From an uncultured Acidimicrobiaceae bacterium (lineage in GTDB: Bacteria > Actinomycetota > Acidimicrobiia > Acidimicrobiales > Palsa-688): a stretch of 64,000 nt of DNA. The position numbers and the translations under genes are program-made. The stretch covers positions 1,038,831 through 1,102,830 of the forward strand of contig CAWICN010000001.1 in assembly GCA_963834725.1 (NCBI GenBank), written 5' to 3'. This document shows positions 59,083-63,509 of this stretch, one piece after another; position 1 is the first letter of the stretch; the number at the start of each line of letters is the position of its first letter. The notes below the pieces were generated by a model. It saw only the letters and a program-made list of their open reading frames with translations. It did no database searches and was not told the origin of the DNA.

Positions 59083-60380
59083 GTGCACGATCTTTTGAGC
59101 ATCGGAGACTTCGCCGCTCGCTGCGGTCTGTCGGCCAAGATGCTGCGGTCGTACGCGGCAGCCGGCCTGTTGATGCCTGCCGCGGTGGACGGCTCGTCGG
59201 GTTACCGCTACTACTCGATCGTTCAGTTTCGCCGGGCCGAGGTCATCGGTCTGCTTCGCCGAGCCGGTATACCGATCCGCGACATCGCCGGCTTCCTGCG
59301 TGACCCCGAATCGACCCAGCTGGACCGCTGGGACAACCAGCTTATCGCGCAGGTTGCGGCCCGACGACAAGCGTTGGCGGACGCCCGCGCCGTTTTGGAT
59401 CTGGACAGCACCTCCCCTCCGTCAGCCCGATCTACCCCAGCGAAAGGATCCCCGATGACCCTAACCGTTGCGGCCGGCTCCGCCACCCAGAAAGGCGGAC
59501 GCGATGCCAACCAGGACGCCGTGCTCATAGGCGACGATCTCTACGCCGTGGCCGACGGCCTTGGAGGTCTCCAAGACGGAGAGATCGCCAGCCACCTCGC
59601 CCTAGAAACCCTCCAGATCACCTTCGCTGTCGATCACAGCAGTTCCGGGCTGCTCCACGCCTGCCAGGAGGCCAACCGAGTGGTGTGGAAACGAGCAACC
59701 CTACAAGGCGACGACCCGACCATGGGAACCACAGTTGCCGCCGTGGGGATCACATCTGACTCCGCGGTGGTCGTCGCCCACGTTGGCGACTCGCGCCTCT
59801 ACCATTTCAACAACGGCCGACTAAGTACTTCGAATCTCAACTACGTTGATGATCTCAAAGCTTCGCCGATAGGCCGCTCTGCCCTGTTCGTCCGCGTGTC
59901 TTCAAGCCCAGATCATCAACGTAGTTGAGATCTGAAGCACTAAGCCAGATCACCGGCGATCACAGCATCGTGGCCGATCTGCTCCGCTCCGGTCAGCTGA
60001 GCGAACAAGACGCCAAGACCCACCCCGATCGCCATGTCCTGACCCGGGCGTTGGGGGTGGCTCCTGACGTGCAGGTCGACATCGCGGCAGTCCCGTGCGA
60101 GACCGGCGACAGGCTGCTGTTGTGCACCGACGGACTGTTCAAGGCCCTCACCGTCGACGAACTTGCGGTCGCGCTCGCGTCGGACAGCGAACCTCAACGA
60201 CTGGCCGACGACCTGGTCTCAAGCGCGGTGCGCGCCGATGCCGAAGACAACGTCACCGTCTTGGTCATGGATCTTCAACAAGAGGCTGACCGCTGTGTTA
60301 CCTCTAGTCGAAGGAGAGTGGTCACACACGTCGTGCCATCCACAGCCGGGTCTGGTAGGCGACCTGCATCTCGCCGTTGA
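59083..60380 (+). pseudogene. MerR-type HTH fused to a PP2C Ser/Thr phosphatase domain, interrupted by a MITE
   Basis: The N-terminus is LSIGDFAARCGLSAKMLRSYAAAGLLMPAAVDGSSGYRYYS (MerR). PP2C motifs follow: RDANQDAVL...YAVADGLGG...GTTVAAV...AHVGDSRLY, then (after the insertion) ITGDHS...HVLTRALG...LLLCTDGL...DNVTVLVMDL. Joining 59083-59825 to 59945-60380 gives 1179 nt, in frame. Confidence 0.8.
59826..59939. mobile_element. Miniature inverted-repeat element (114 bp) with 5-bp direct duplication CTAAG
   Basis: CTAAG is at 59821-59825 and 59940-59944. The terminal inverted repeats (59821-59855 versus 59910-59944) match at 31 of 35 positions, and the inner 22 bp (ATCTCAACTACGTTGATGATCT) are perfect. 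There is no coding capacity. Confidence 0.75.
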
Positions 60381-61065
60381 CGAACTGCTTGCGCAGGATC
60401 GCCTCGACATCACGAAGCAGATCGCCCCGCCGGTCTTCGCCGAGGCCGATCACATAGGAGTGGCTTCTCAGGTCGATCAACCAATCCTCGACGCTCACCT
60501 CGCGCTGCCAGGAGAATATGTGACGCCGTGCCACATCGAAGGCGTCGGAGGCGGCGATAGTCTCCGCGCACCAATCGATGTTCCTTTGGTTGCGCGACAT
60601 ACCGGGGCAGGTGCTCTCAAGAAGTGAGTAGTAGTCGTCGAACCAGGATTGCTGATCGGCCCACGGGTGATTCCACCACGCCGCCCACCAGCCACCAGGC
60701 TTGAGGATCCTGGCTATCTCCGCCGTGCCGCCTGGTTGGTCCACCCAGTGCCAACTCTGTCCCCAGCACACCAGGTCGAAGACCCCGGATCGAAACGGGC
60801 TCGCGGCGCCGTCAGCGATCGCCGCTTCGAGACCCACGGTTCGGGCCGTTGCCTTTCGGAGCATCCTTTCGCCGGGGTCGAAGGCGACGACCTTGGCATG
60901 ACGCTCTATCAGCTGTCGGGTGACCACGCCGGTACCGGCACCGCCATCAGCCACGCTCTTGCCGGCCAAACCGCCACATGACACGTCCAGAAGGTCGTAA
61001 ACCTCCTTCGGATAAGAAGGTCGAGCCGCGCCGTACTCCGCCGCGGCCTCCTCGAACAGCCTCAC
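60322..61065 (-). CDS. Class I SAM-dependent methyltransferase
   Basis: 247-aa ORF: YGAARPSYPKEVYDLL...VADGGAGTGVVTRQLIERHAKVVAFDPGERML...LKPGGWWAAWWN. Confidence 0.85.
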   Translation of the reverse strand: MRLFEEAAAEYGAARPSYPKEVYDLLDVSCGGLAGKSVADGGAGTGVVTRQLIERHAKVVAFDPGERMLRKATARTVGLEAAIADGAASPFRSGVFDLVCWGQSWHWVDQPGGTAEIARILKPGGWWAAWWNHPWADQQSWFDDYYSLLESTCPGMSRNQRNIDWCAETIAASDAFDVARRHIFSWQREVSVEDWLIDLRSHSYVIGLGEDRRGDLLRDVEAILRKQFVNGEMQVAYQTRLWMARRV

Positions 61066-61204
61066 CTGACAAGTGTCGCACTCCGAGGACCAGGCACGTG
61101 ATGGTGTGGCTGTCGCTCAACAGTCCCGGCGGTCACCGGCAAGACCCGACGGTGATGATCTGAAGGTCGCCAGGATCGGAACCGCCTTGACGGCGCCGGT
61201 CGGG

Positions 61205-61261
61205 ATGGCTTTCAATATGGTCACGATGTTCGCCCTGACCGGATCGCTTCTCCTTATGTGA
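61205..61261 (+). promoter_or_regulatory. Candidate Leu-rich leader peptide (18 aa) of a leuS attenuator
   Basis: ATG 61205 ... TGA 61259-61261 gives MAFNMVTMFALTGSLLLM. There are three consecutive Leu codons CTT CTC CTT (61247-61255) and in-frame alternative ATGs at 61217 and 61226. Confidence 0.45.
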
Positions 61262-61291
61262 CGGCGAGCGGTACTTCTCGCTCGCCACCAG

Positions 61292-61320
61292 CCTCCTGCC
61301 CCGGCAGGAGGTTTTTTGTT
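61292..61320 (+). terminator. Intrinsic terminator in the leuS 5' leader
   Basis: CCTCCTGC-CCCG-GCAGGAGG followed by TTTTTTGTT. It is preceded by a second perfect hairpin, GGCGAGCG-N8-CGCTCGCC (61263-61286). No upstream + strand gene ends here. Confidence 0.65.
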
Positions 61321-61364
61321 GCCCTCGAAAGGACCACTGAGATGCAAGAGAACGGACCACTCCG

Positions 61365-63509
61365 GTGGGTGTCGCCTATGACTTCGCCGAGATCGAAACC
61401 CGATGGCGCCAAGACTGGGAAGCCGACGGTCTGTACCGCCTCGACTTAGACGCCATACACCCCGAGCGGGTCTTTTACAACCTGGTCGAGTTCCCCTACC
61501 CCTCCGCCGGGGGCCTGCACGTGGGGCATGTGTTCAAGTACTCCGGCGCCGACGCTTACGGCCGCTATCAGCGCATGCGGGGCCGGGCGGTGTTCCAGCC
61601 GATCGGTTTCGACGCGTTCGGCATCCACACCGAGAACTTCGCCATCAAAGCCGGCCAGCACCCCATGCGCCTGACGGGGCGGACCACCGAGGCGTTCCGG
61701 GCTCAGCTGTCACGGGGAGGGATGGCCTGGGACTGGTCTCGGTGCGTGGATACCAGCCGTCCCGGCTACTACCGCTGGACCCAGTGGATCCTGACCCGAC
61801 TATTCGACGCCGGTTTGATGTACCAGGCCGAAGCGCCGGTGCTGTGGTGCCCGTCCTGTCTGACCGTGCTGGCCCGGGAGCAGACGGAGACCGAAAACGG
61901 GGAGCAGGTGTGCGAGCGGTGCTCGACCCCGGTGGTCGAGCGTCAGATGCGGCAGTGGTTCCTGCGCACCACCGCCTACGCAGATCGTCTGCTGGCCGGT
62001 TTGGGCGGGTTGGACTGGCCGCAGCGGGCCAAACGTCTGCAACGCCAGTGGATCGGGCGGTCGGAGGGACGAGAGATCGACTTCGGAGATCTGACCGTGT
62101 TCACCACCCGCCCCGACACCCTGCCCGCGGTCACCTTCTTGGCCGTCCCGCCCGGCCATCCCGCCGTCGGCGGACACCGCCCCCACCCGCTCACCGGCAT
62201 GCCAGTACCGGTGGTCGCCGCCGACTATGTGATCGAGTCATACGGGACCGGAGCGGTGATGGGAGTGCCGGCGCGTGACGACCGAGACGCCCGCTACGCC
62301 GCCCAACACGGCCTCCCCGTCTCTGACGCGCCCCTCCTGAACGCGGACGACGCCGCCGGGGTCGGTCGGGCCGCGGTGCGCTACCGGATGCGGGACTGGC
62401 TGATCTCCCGCCAGCGCTACTGGGGGCCGCCCATCCCCATCATCCACTGCGACGCCTGCGGACCCGTGTCGGCGCCCGAGCAGGATCTACCAGTGCTGCT
62501 GCCCGAGGTGGAGGAGTTCCGCCCCACCGGCACCGGCAAGTCCCCTCTGGCCACCGTCGAAGCTTTCGTCCGGGCCCGCTGCCCGCGCTGCGGCGGTCCG
62601 GGCCGGCGCGAGACCGACGTGTCCGACACCTTCGTCGACTCGGCCTGGTACTTCCTGCGCTACCCGTCCACCGACTTTGACGACCGGGCCTGGGACTCAG
62701 AACGCACCGCCCGCATCCTGCCCGTCGACTTCTACGCCGGCGGCCCCGAGCACGTACAGCGCCATCACCTCTACGCCCGGTTCATGACCATGGCCCTCCA
62801 CGACCTGGGATTGGTGGACTTAGAAGAACCGTTCCCCCGGATCCGCCTGGGCGGCCTGATCATCAAAGAGGGAGCGAAGATGTCCAAGAGCCGCGGCAAC
62901 GTGGTCGGACCCGACGGCTACGTCACGGATCATGGCTCGGACGTGTTGCGCTGCGCCCTGTTGTTCACCTGCCCGTGGGAGGCCGGCGGCGACTTCCACG
63001 ACGACACCATCGCCGGCATCGAGCGGTTCTTCACCCGAGTGTGGAACACCGTCACCACCCAACCGTCAGAGATGGACCGAGCCGACCCTGTGGTGGAGCG
63101 CACCATCGTGGCGGTCAGCGACGCCATCGAGAAGCTCAGCTTCAACGTCGCCCTGGCCCGCCTGATGGAGATGACCGCTTCCGCGACCACCGCCAGAGCC
63201 AAACGGGTCCTGGTCCAACTGCTGGCGCCCTTCGCCCCGCATCTGGCCGAGGAGCTGTGGGCCCGCCTCGGCGAGCCCTATAGCGTGCATACCAGCGCAT
63301 GGCCCGCACCCGATGCGACGGTCCTGGGATCGCAACCGGTCCAGGTCGTCGTCCAAGTCGACGGCAAAGTTCGAGCACGGATCGCCGTACCTGCCGACGC
63401 CGACGAGACACAGATCATCGACGCAGCCGTTCGGGCCGTCAACGGAATGACAGCGGCCAGAACCGTCTACGTGCCCGGCCGCCTGGTCAACTTCGTCACC
63501 CGAAACTGA
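61365..63509 (+). CDS. leuS: Leucine--tRNA ligase (compact 714-aa form)
   Basis: HIGH motif (GLHVGHVF), KMSKS, CP1/editing motifs TTRPDT and YGTGAVMGVPARDDRD, zinc-type CxxC pairs, and the C-terminal tRNA-binding tail VVQVDGKVRARIAVPADA...VYVPGRLVNFV. Confidence 0.95.
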   Translation: MGVAYDFAEIETRWRQDWEADGLYRLDLDAIHPERVFYNLVEFPYPSAGGLHVGHVFKYSGADAYGRYQRMRGRAVFQPIGFDAFGIHTENFAIKAGQHPMRLTGRTTEAFRAQLSRGGMAWDWSRCVDTSRPGYYRWTQWILTRLFDAGLMYQAEAPVLWCPSCLTVLAREQTETENGEQVCERCSTPVVERQMRQWFLRTTAYADRLLAGLGGLDWPQRAKRLQRQWIGRSEGREIDFGDLTVFTTRPDTLPAVTFLAVPPGHPAVGGHRPHPLTGMPVPVVAADYVIESYGTGAVMGVPARDDRDARYAAQHGLPVSDAPLLNADDAAGVGRAAVRYRMRDWLISRQRYWGPPIPIIHCDACGPVSAPEQDLPVLLPEVEEFRPTGTGKSPLATVEAFVRARCPRCGGPGRRETDVSDTFVDSAWYFLRYPSTDFDDRAWDSERTARILPVDFYAGGPEHVQRHHLYARFMTMALHDLGLVDLEEPFPRIRLGGLIIKEGAKMSKSRGNVVGPDGYVTDHGSDVLRCALLFTCPWEAGGDFHDDTIAGIERFFTRVWNTVTTQPSEMDRADPVVERTIVAVSDAIEKLSFNVALARLMEMTASATTARAKRVLVQLLAPFAPHLAEELWARLGEPYSVHTSAWPAPDATVLGSQPVQVVVQVDGKVRARIAVPADADETQIIDAAVRAVNGMTAARTVYVPGRLVNFVTRN

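Follow-up and report, generated by a model that had tools for sequence, protein, structure and literature searches.

The window analysed here, a stretch of 64,000 nt from contig CAWICN010000001.1 of an uncultured Acidimicrobiaceae bacterium (assembly GCA_963834725.1, positions 1,038,831 to 1,102,830 of the forward strand), carries near its end the gene leuS for leucyl-tRNA synthetase (LeuRS). The upstream neighbour of the leuS leader is a divergent methyltransferase gene (60322-61065, - strand), and the nearest upstream open reading frame (ORF) on the + strand ends at 60380, about 900 nt away. Between the methyltransferase gene and leuS lie a candidate promoter, a short ORF ending in a run of leucine codons, a GC-rich hairpin (H1) and a terminator hairpin (T) followed by a U tract (Table 1). 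The whole predicted leader is only about 95 nt long, and 45 nt separate T from the leuS start codon. The original prediction, made from the sequence of the window, had remarked that no + strand gene lies upstream for this terminator to serve. We find the same: with no + strand gene ending nearby, T cannot terminate an upstream gene.

Table 1. Features of the leuS leader region, all coordinates being those of the window
Feature	Coordinates	Strand	Remarks
Predicted leader promoter, -35 hexamer TTGACG	61187-61192	+	TTGAC visible in every leuS relative
Predicted leader promoter, -10-like hexamer TTCAAT	61211-61216	+	Spacer of 18 nt; 9 nt 5' of the leader ATG; assigned by promoter geometry only
Leader ORF MFALTGSLLLM*, 11 codons plus TGA	61226-61261	+	ORF kept in relatives
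Leu run CTT CTC CTT, then one codon (ATG) and the stop codon	61247-61255	+	Leu codons conserved
Hairpin H1, GGCGAGCG(G)/(U)CGCUCGCC	61263-61286	+	Folding and covariation; begins 1 nt past the stop codon
Terminator hairpin T, core CCUCCUGC-CCCG-GCAGGAGG	61290-61313	+	Left arm anti-Shine-Dalgarno-like, right arm Shine-Dalgarno-like
U tract TTTTTTGTTG	61312-61321	+	U-rich tract kept in 68 of 68 aligned elements
Shine-Dalgarno-like GAAAGGA and ATG, first copy of the 23-nt duplication of the leuS ribosome-binding site	61327-61344	+	Read directly from the sequence
leuS, 714 aa, putatively regulated gene	61365-63509	+	TIGR00396 leuS_bact, 688 bits against a cut-off of 548

Related leuS loci were gathered by protein similarity, independently of any motif. 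The search returned 13 loci with 66-81% identity to the window LeuRS, and 11 of them are distinct (L082 is a near-repeat of L003, and L084 a repeat of L083). They belong to a clade of proteins of about 710-720 aa whose named matches are Acidimicrobiales or Acidimicrobiia, and the N-terminus M-x-(V/I/L)-(P/A)-Y-D is common to the window protein and its relatives. All 13 loci have the same upstream layout, consisting of a short ORF whose last codons are a Leu run, a single other codon and the stop, then a GC hairpin 0-2 nt past the stop codon, a spacer of 4-7 nt, and T with its U tract. In these loci the left arm of T contains CCUCCU, opposed on the right by (A/G)GGAGG or GGGGG. Metagenomes were scanned with a pattern made of the H1 right arm and T only (CGCTCG-N5-10-CCTCCTG-N3-9-CAGGRGGTT), which gave 77 loci. 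About 60 of them have the full module, and about 15 are chance matches within coding DNA, without a leader; all matches other than the chance ones have the short ORF with its Leu run in register. The window, the protein-retrieved loci and the metagenome loci amount to 64 distinct elements once duplicates are removed. An alignment of 68 elements (A1) was folded with RNAalifold and was the source of a covariance model (R1).

Fifty of the 64 distinct elements lie before leuA, 11 before leuS and three on truncated contigs; apart from the last, placement was seen only before these two genes. The leuA genes encode long and short forms of 2-isopropylmalate synthase (NCBIfam scores of 851, 868 and 721 bits against cut-offs of 455 and 532), and the closest LeuA relatives are named Acidimicrobiales. 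One locus (L156) has a leader of the leuS type, MFLLTASLLLT*, placed before leuA. Model R1 detects the element once in the window (77.6 bits) and recovers no copy upstream of the leuS genes from Chloroflexota and other phyla (L004-L080). One weak match, probably due to chance (15.3 bits, E = 0.65), lies directly 5' of leuS in an Anaerolineae metagenome-assembled genome (L045 2810-2941, +). An Rfam cmscan of 60500-62000 gave no family at E < 10, T-box and Leu_leader included, and a scan of the leuA-type loci at E <= 1 gave nothing relevant, only sub-threshold unrelated matches. One module before the first leucine-specific biosynthetic gene and before the leucine-charging enzyme, with codon identity kept, is what a leucine-sensing leader peptide predicts. 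Very probably, to judge by these comparisons, the module tunes leuS and leuA to the supply of charged leucine tRNA. The comparisons likewise indicate that the predicted attenuator is a lineage-specific module set by Acidimicrobiales before leuS and leuA.

The predicted promoter is the first conserved part of the module. TTGAC lies 35-39 nt 5' of the leader ATG in all 64 unique elements, and a -10-like hexamer (CACGAT, GATGAT, GAGAAT, TTCAAT, TTTACT and others) 7-9 nt 5' of it in 60. This promoter geometry suits a leaderless transcript in all 64. For the window, transcription is predicted to start at about 61223-61226, which would make the transcript leaderless or give it a 5' untranslated region (UTR) of 1-3 nt; no Shine-Dalgarno (SD) sequence lies 5' of ATG 61226. 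The original prediction had taken an 18-codon ORF as the leader, and the frame 61206-61261 does read MAFNMVTMFALTGSLLLM*, inside a 62-aa ORF that begins at 61073. However, the ATG at 61206 sits between the conserved -35 and -10 hexamers, and the residues FNM fall inside the promoter. The part of the 18-codon ORF upstream of 61226 overlaps the promoter and is not conserved as protein. Because the predicted promoter would put the start at about 61223-61226, the leader is better described as an 11-codon ORF, and probably only these last 11 codons (61226-61261) are translated.

Leader peptides of the relatives include MFVFTGSLLLT*, MFTLTGTLLLT*, MPRATHRLLLM*, MRATTTVLLT* and MNCVLLLM*, among others. 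Between clades they differ (MFALTGSLLLM*, MTRTFASDLLLLM*, MLSLLATSGLLLT*, MRSHEHLLLLL*, MNCVLLLM*), and all clades share only a run of three to four Leu codons, a single next codon and the stop. The codon after the Leu run is ATG in 44 elements and ACN in 15. The three Leu positions encode Leu in 63, 64 and 63 of the 64 elements, by way of CTC, CTG, CTT and CTA, and this maintenance through synonymous change is the mark expected of coding-level selection. In the window the ORF ends in CTT CTC CTT, Met and stop exactly as first described. The last Leu codon is CTT in 54 of the 64 elements. This codon had been expected to be a minor one, and it makes up 7.6% of the Leu codons in the ORFs of the window with high GC at third codon positions and none of the 54 in leuS.

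H1 in the window consists of nine pairs including one G.U, with a folding energy of -17.3 kcal/mol (z = -3.9), and none of 200 shuffles folds as well. A perfect 8-bp hairpin had been proposed at these positions; the hairpin is there, although it has nine pairs with the G.U counted and starts 1 nt past the stop codon. In 56 of the 64 elements H1 opens with a pair at -1 to +1 nt from where the stop codon ends, and a register fixed to this degree implies selection on it. Double changes occur in five of the six aligned pairs, for example GCGAGCCGA/UCGGCUCGC and GCGCAGAC/GUCUGCGC, and these same arms show that in the more distant leuS loci the sequence of H1 differs while its pairing is kept. RNAalifold returned exactly two helices for A1, namely H1 and T, with 98.4% of the cells paired. 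Eight pairs show changes on both sides, mostly in H1, against 1.4 in shuffles. Conservation in relatives, which the original prediction had named as a check, is found for the Leu codons, H1 and T.

T is a stem of ten pairs with a loop of 4 nt (-17.3 kcal/mol, z = -4.0); T6-G-TTG comes after it. Terminator-like matches in the 64-kb window are otherwise at the level of shuffled sequence (13 against 9.2, 14 against 9.6, 10 against 10.3 and 1 against 1.8), and T alone combines ten pairs with a T6 tract. For the pattern CCTCC-N4-14-GGAGGTT the window has one occurrence, against 0.19 expected. Thus, T is above chance and is the only canonical terminator in the 64 kb, in agreement with its first description as a canonical intrinsic terminator 45 nt before leuS. 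Across the elements H1 and T share no bases, the unpaired linker between them is 0-6 nt, and T lies 24-88 nt from the start codon. The left arm CCUCCU is invariant in 68 of 68 aligned elements, and the right arm varies between A and G, which gives a U.G pair. Preservation of the T stem in its sequence and not by covarying pairs points to a further demand on it, perhaps as a pause site or for sequestering an SD.

The left arm of T, (A)CCUCCU(G) (hairpin core 61292-61311), equals the core of the 16S anti-SD, and the right arm is a perfect SD, AGGAGG, or GGGGG paired via U.G. In the leuA loci of the MTRTFASDLLLLM clade (for example L092, L103 and L114), CCCCGAC occurs both just 5' of the T left arm and just 3' of the U tract, and the leader segment UCCGACCUCCUCCUG resembles the spacer with the T left arm, CCCGACGACCUCCUG. 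These likenesses hint that the T arm may have arisen through duplication of the Leu-run segment.

Taken as a whole, the leuS leader is likely to be a Leu-tRNA-responsive, ribosome-mediated attenuator in which a stall on the Leu run raises leuS expression. The original prediction of a Leu-codon leader peptide and terminator controlling leuS is backed in this by all 13 leuS loci, about 50 leuA loci and the synonymous conservation of the Leu codons. A sigma-70-type promoter (-35 at 61187, -10 at 61211) would start the transcript at most about 3 nt from AUG 61226, and a ribosome would load on the essentially leaderless 11-codon ORF ending Leu-Leu-Leu-Met-stop, with the rare CUU as the last Leu codon. 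Most transcripts would stop at T, so that leuS expression would depend on read-through. Ahead of a ribosome, mRNA is unwound as far as some 11-13 nt past the first base in the P site, on the 3' side, and where the ribosome stands with respect to H1 would be the sensor. While any of the three Leu codons occupies the A site, the leading edge of the ribosome would reach the first pair of H1 at most, and H1 would stay folded. With the stop codon in the A site, the entire left arm of H1 would be unwound. In that the terminating ribosome covers its 5' arm, H1 stands where a classical antiterminator would. The sequences show the anatomy, its conservation, the link to two leucine genes and the stall geometry, whereas we infer the direction of control and the path from H1 to T: a stall with H1 folded would lead to read-through and more LeuRS, and finished translation with H1 melted would lead to termination.

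How the state of H1 might reach T is a separate matter. That a folded H1 antagonises T without competing for bases is possible rather than probable. As a speculation, the link could be steric: folded H1 would take 24 nt from the tether, and T would have to close in the exit channel of RNA polymerase, 0-6 nt from a hairpin docked on the stalled ribosome, whereas a melted H1 would give back about 20 nt of slack. H1 may double as a pause hairpin and so allow ribosome loading on the leaderless transcript, which has been suggested for Corynebacterium glutamicum ilvB (PMC11857589). In its fullest form, which we put forward with considerable doubt, H1 would be a 'non-overlapping antiterminator' that blocks T sterically or mechanically, the module would form a leucine 'ribulon' coupling leuA and leuS across Acidimicrobiales, and the T left arm might be a hairpin-stabilised pause site. 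If true, a non-overlapping H1 antiterminator would be a mode of attenuation apart from the alternative-pairing paradigm.

Several points weigh against leucine-responsive attenuation at T. No mutually exclusive antiterminator, of the kind that the original prediction had proposed to look for by folding, was found by hand search, by RNAalifold or by constrained folding in three ribosome states. In the constrained folds the probability of T is about 1.0 in the naked, the last-Leu-stalled and the stop-codon states, and leaving the T left arm unpaired costs a median of 9-12 kcal/mol. Since T forms in every constrained state, an equilibrium RNA model predicts termination in every state, and the step from the status of H1 to T is unsupported by the modelling. 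We know of no precedent for the steric or tether idea, which also leaves the invariant CCUCCU of the T left arm unexplained. Most metagenome members were found by a pattern that fixes the H1 right arm and T; for those parts, only the protein-retrieved leuS loci give an unbiased view of conservation. The promoter, the termination and the leucine response of the leuS leader are themselves predictions from sequence. In Streptomyces coelicolor ilvB, swapping the presumed regulatory codons had no effect, according to work cited in PMC1262725; predictions made for actinobacterial leader peptides do not always hold.

Other pairings and readings of the leader were considered and rejected. With the T left arm blocked, the Leu run and the T right arm form the next-best pairing, but as a functional helix this pairing is no better than in synonymous recodings: it ranks in the lowest 5% in six of the 64 elements, and the window stands at the 93rd percentile. 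The complementarity is a by-product of CUN codons. The CUC-CUG of the T left arm could be a second translated Leu sensor, or T could be crossed by frameshift or read-through; however, these codons lie in frame 0, 1 or 2 relative to the leader, with an in-frame start codon in almost no element. A pseudoknot between the H1 loop and the T right arm is not conserved (the loops are pyrimidine-rich in many elements, and UUC or AAU in L088 and L089). Extension of H1 into the spacer or T is seen in some leuA clades only, does not occur in the window and would in any event lie under the stalled ribosome. The T right arm as SD of a conserved UUG-start ORF coupled to the gene was discarded by eye, lengths and end points being inconsistent, and H1 with ACCA as a mimic of the tRNA acceptor fails because ACCA is not conserved.

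Among the other explanations, translational control fares best. Here the pyrimidine-rich Leu run would pair with the downstream ribosome-binding site (RBS) and a stalled ribosome would free the RBS, T being merely a constitutive leaky terminator that sets the basal level. The naked full-length fold of the window indeed pairs the Leu run (about 61242-61256) with 61338-61356 beside the leuS start and becomes 7 kcal/mol worse when the Leu run is masked, and the same pairing appears in several leuA-type elements (L104, L106, L109, L121, L156, L159 and L162). Such unmasking is predicted for the LEU element (PMC1262725) and documented for mycobacterial Cys small ORFs (sORFs; Canestrari 2020, as cited in PMC13236596). 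Across the elements, however, the pairing is inconsistent, with a median of about one base pair between Leu run and RBS, and over 61 elements SD accessibility is unmoved by masking of the Leu run (0.47 against 0.48); for the window, masking lowers it (0.57 before, 0.42 after). T lies anywhere from 24 to 88 nt before the start codon. RBS unmasking accounts neither for the exact spacing of stop codon and H1 nor for a strictly kept U-tract terminator in a genome otherwise without them, and we regard it as unlikely.

Stabilisation of the mRNA by the stall is clearly less probable again. A ribosome on the Leu codons would shield the read-through transcript from 5'-end-dependent decay by RNase J or RNase E, and leuS mRNA would rise with termination unchanged. 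An ORF predicted at the very 5' end would place the stalled ribosome over about nt 5-40, and a stall that means ON without an antiterminator fits the constrained folding. Leader-induced mRNA stability at erm is a precedent for stall-dependent stabilisation. Nevertheless, under this mechanism neither H1 nor its fixed position has a function, and selection for a strong terminator stays unexplained.

Two further explanations are poorly compatible with the comparative data. A functional micropeptide, or a small RNA with its own terminator and only incidental read-through into leuS, would involve no leucine sensing; the closest clade keeps MF-x-L-T-G-(S/T)-LLL-T/M with synonymous changes at the Gly and Thr codons, but the peptides of the other clades (MTRTFASDLLLLM, MLSLLATSGLLLT, MRSHEHLLLLL*, MNCVLLLM*) have only the Leu run, one codon and the stop in common with it, the element is found only before leuS and leuA, and the 45 nt between T and the leuS start leave no room for a separate leuS promoter, which makes this very improbable. 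The same low probability attaches to an RNA switch that binds a ligand or protein, whether a T-box with tRNA-Leu, a leucine riboswitch or autoregulation by LeuRS with H1 as a tRNA mimic. Escherichia coli thrS is an aminoacyl-tRNA synthetase (aaRS) gene under operator control, and H1 in the window is followed by ACCA, like a tRNA 3' end. In addition, aaRS genes are often T-box controlled (in Firmicutes, and ileS in Actinobacteria; PMC1262725). Against such a switch, the Rfam searches found no family around the window leader or in the leuA-type loci, the leader is short, and the H1 loop and ACCA are not conserved (spacers are GUAAA, UCCGA, CUCCA and others); what is conserved instead is the reading frame with its Leu codons.

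Leucine-responsive attenuation at T can also be set beside known leader-peptide systems. The leaders of E. coli leu, pheM-pheST and trp likewise place a run of cognate codons in a short ORF and an intrinsic terminator ahead of the structural gene, with rare codons as sensors. E. coli attenuator leaders have an SD and a 5' UTR, and their four segments form mutually exclusive 1:2, 2:3 and 3:4 pairings. In contrast, the leader described here is predicted to be leaderless, with an 11-codon ORF and a post-stop hairpin that shares no base with the terminator. The original prediction had likened the layout to E. coli leu and pheM; since H1 and T coexist in all modelled states, the likeness holds for the logic and not for the anatomy. 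An aaRS gene is the controlled gene in pheM-pheST as well (pheST as cited in PMC1262725).

No leader-peptide attenuator of leuS was known to the original prediction, but Streptomyces cases have been published (PMC1262725, PMC8079986). Attenuators of leuS were predicted in S. coelicolor and S. avermitilis and classed as classical by comparative analysis (PMC1262725), and in S. lividans TK24 leuL2 is a leaderless 12-aa leader, MRAVRLLLSEPR*, that precedes leuS and is followed by a hairpin and a U stretch (PMC8079986). Like the present element, which is predicted to be leaderless too, the Streptomyces leader is a leaderless short ORF with three consecutive Leu codons before leuS, with a hairpin and U stretch (PMC8079986). 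It belongs to another actinobacterial class, however, and has four codons after the Leu run, against exactly one here; by its published description, antiterminator and terminator overlap, whereas none overlap here.

The ilvBNC leader of C. glutamicum, for which a three-hairpin model exists, has its start codon 1 nt from the transcription start and CUU as control codon; the first hairpin is put forward as a polymerase pause that allows a ribosome to load, and the antiterminator and terminator are adjacent, with an overlap of only 3 nt (PMC11857589). It thus resembles the leuS leader as an actinobacterial leader peptide with a near-zero 5' UTR (a predicted one in leuS), CUU and adjacent hairpins, and differs from it in amino-acid specificity and genes and in the 0-6 unpaired nt, with no shared bases, between H1 and T. 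The LEU element upstream of leuA in Actinobacteria (Seliverstov et al. 2005) is a pseudoknot whose base stem joins the Leu run to the SD of leuA; its description includes no terminator (PMC1262725). Both it and the present module have a Leu-run leader ORF before leuA and a pyrimidine-rich run able to pair with an SD-like purine tract (PMC1262725); here, in contrast, there is a canonical terminator, and pairing of Leu run and RBS occurs in some elements, including the window, but not in most. Mycobacterial poly-Cys leaderless sORFs (a 'ribulon') precede several genes of Cys metabolism and give a ribosome-mediated response (Canestrari 2020, as cited in PMC13236596). The likeness lies in ORFs, leaderless there and predicted to be so here, with codon runs for one amino acid before several genes of its metabolism. 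The poly-Cys sORFs, as far as that citation describes them, unmask a downstream RBS and have no link to a U-tract terminator, whereas here Leu takes the place of Cys, with leuA and an aaRS gene as targets.

Of the hallmarks of a classical attenuator, the module has the codon-run ORF before a cognate gene and the intrinsic terminator, and lacks a mutually exclusive antiterminator. In the Rfam search at E < 10 it has no match to the T-box model (Stem I with specifier loop, T-box antiterminator), and it has no covariance-model match to the Rfam leader families (Leu_leader, leu/phe leader and others). Its distinguishing features are the fixed register of Leu run, one codon, stop and hairpin, the lack of an overlapping antiterminator, the invariant anti-SD-like arm of T, and its use at leuA and leuS in one order. 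Leader-peptide control of leuS is already known in Streptomyces, and the present family is absent from Rfam.

The module is a conserved cis-regulatory RNA family with 68 aligned members and two gene contexts, in a poorly studied and largely uncultured actinobacterial order. It appears to extend leader-peptide control of leuS beyond Streptomyces and to reuse one leucine-codon sensor for leucine synthesis (leuA) and leucine charging (leuS). The module also offers a natural test case for attenuation without an alternative-pairing antiterminator, and the same question arises for other actinobacterial elements with leader peptide and terminator, such as ilvB. For annotation, the 18-codon ORF can be replaced by an 11-codon, predicted leaderless ORF with its promoter, and R1 is available for finding further members.

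The leuS start region of the window has features of its own. The RBS and start region are part of a 23-nt tandem duplication (61331-61367), in which GGACCACTGAGATG (61331-61344) matches GGACCACTCCGGTG (61354-61367). The first copy has the better SD (GAAAGGA) and an ATG at 61342, from which an ORF of 35 codons extends to 61449; it is read in a different frame from leuS and overlaps the leuS start codon. This ORF could be a decoy or a coupling upstream ORF. The duplication is common to L001, L081, L130 and L150, diverged in L003, and absent in L083, L085 and L086, where a single RBS copy serves leuS directly. The leuS GTG lies inside a CCAC-UCCG-GUGG hairpin.

The LeuRS of the window is short. 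Compared with Thermus thermophilus LeuRS (1h3n), its CP1 editing domain is missing about residues 268-306 and 360-407, and its leucine-specific domain about residues 579-627; the motifs TTRPDT and GTGAVMGVPARDDRD are kept. Across the Acidimicrobiia clade, LeuRS length is 706-760 aa. In one relative (L087, 845-1288, equal to L147), a 147-aa gene with a tRNA_edit domain (PF04073, YbaK-like trans-editing) lies directly 5' of the leader and leuS, and the presence of a predicted trans-editing gene beside the leader is suggestive given the trimmed editing domain of LeuRS. Further upstream in the window, two + strand ORFs with a 4-nt overlap (59083-60380) encode 281 aa, with a MerR helix-turn-helix and the N-terminal part of PP2C, and 151 aa, with the C-terminal part of SpoIIE/PP2C. 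Together they resemble a single MerR-PP2C phosphatase gene broken by a frameshift, which may represent a pseudogene, a sequencing error or a programmed event.

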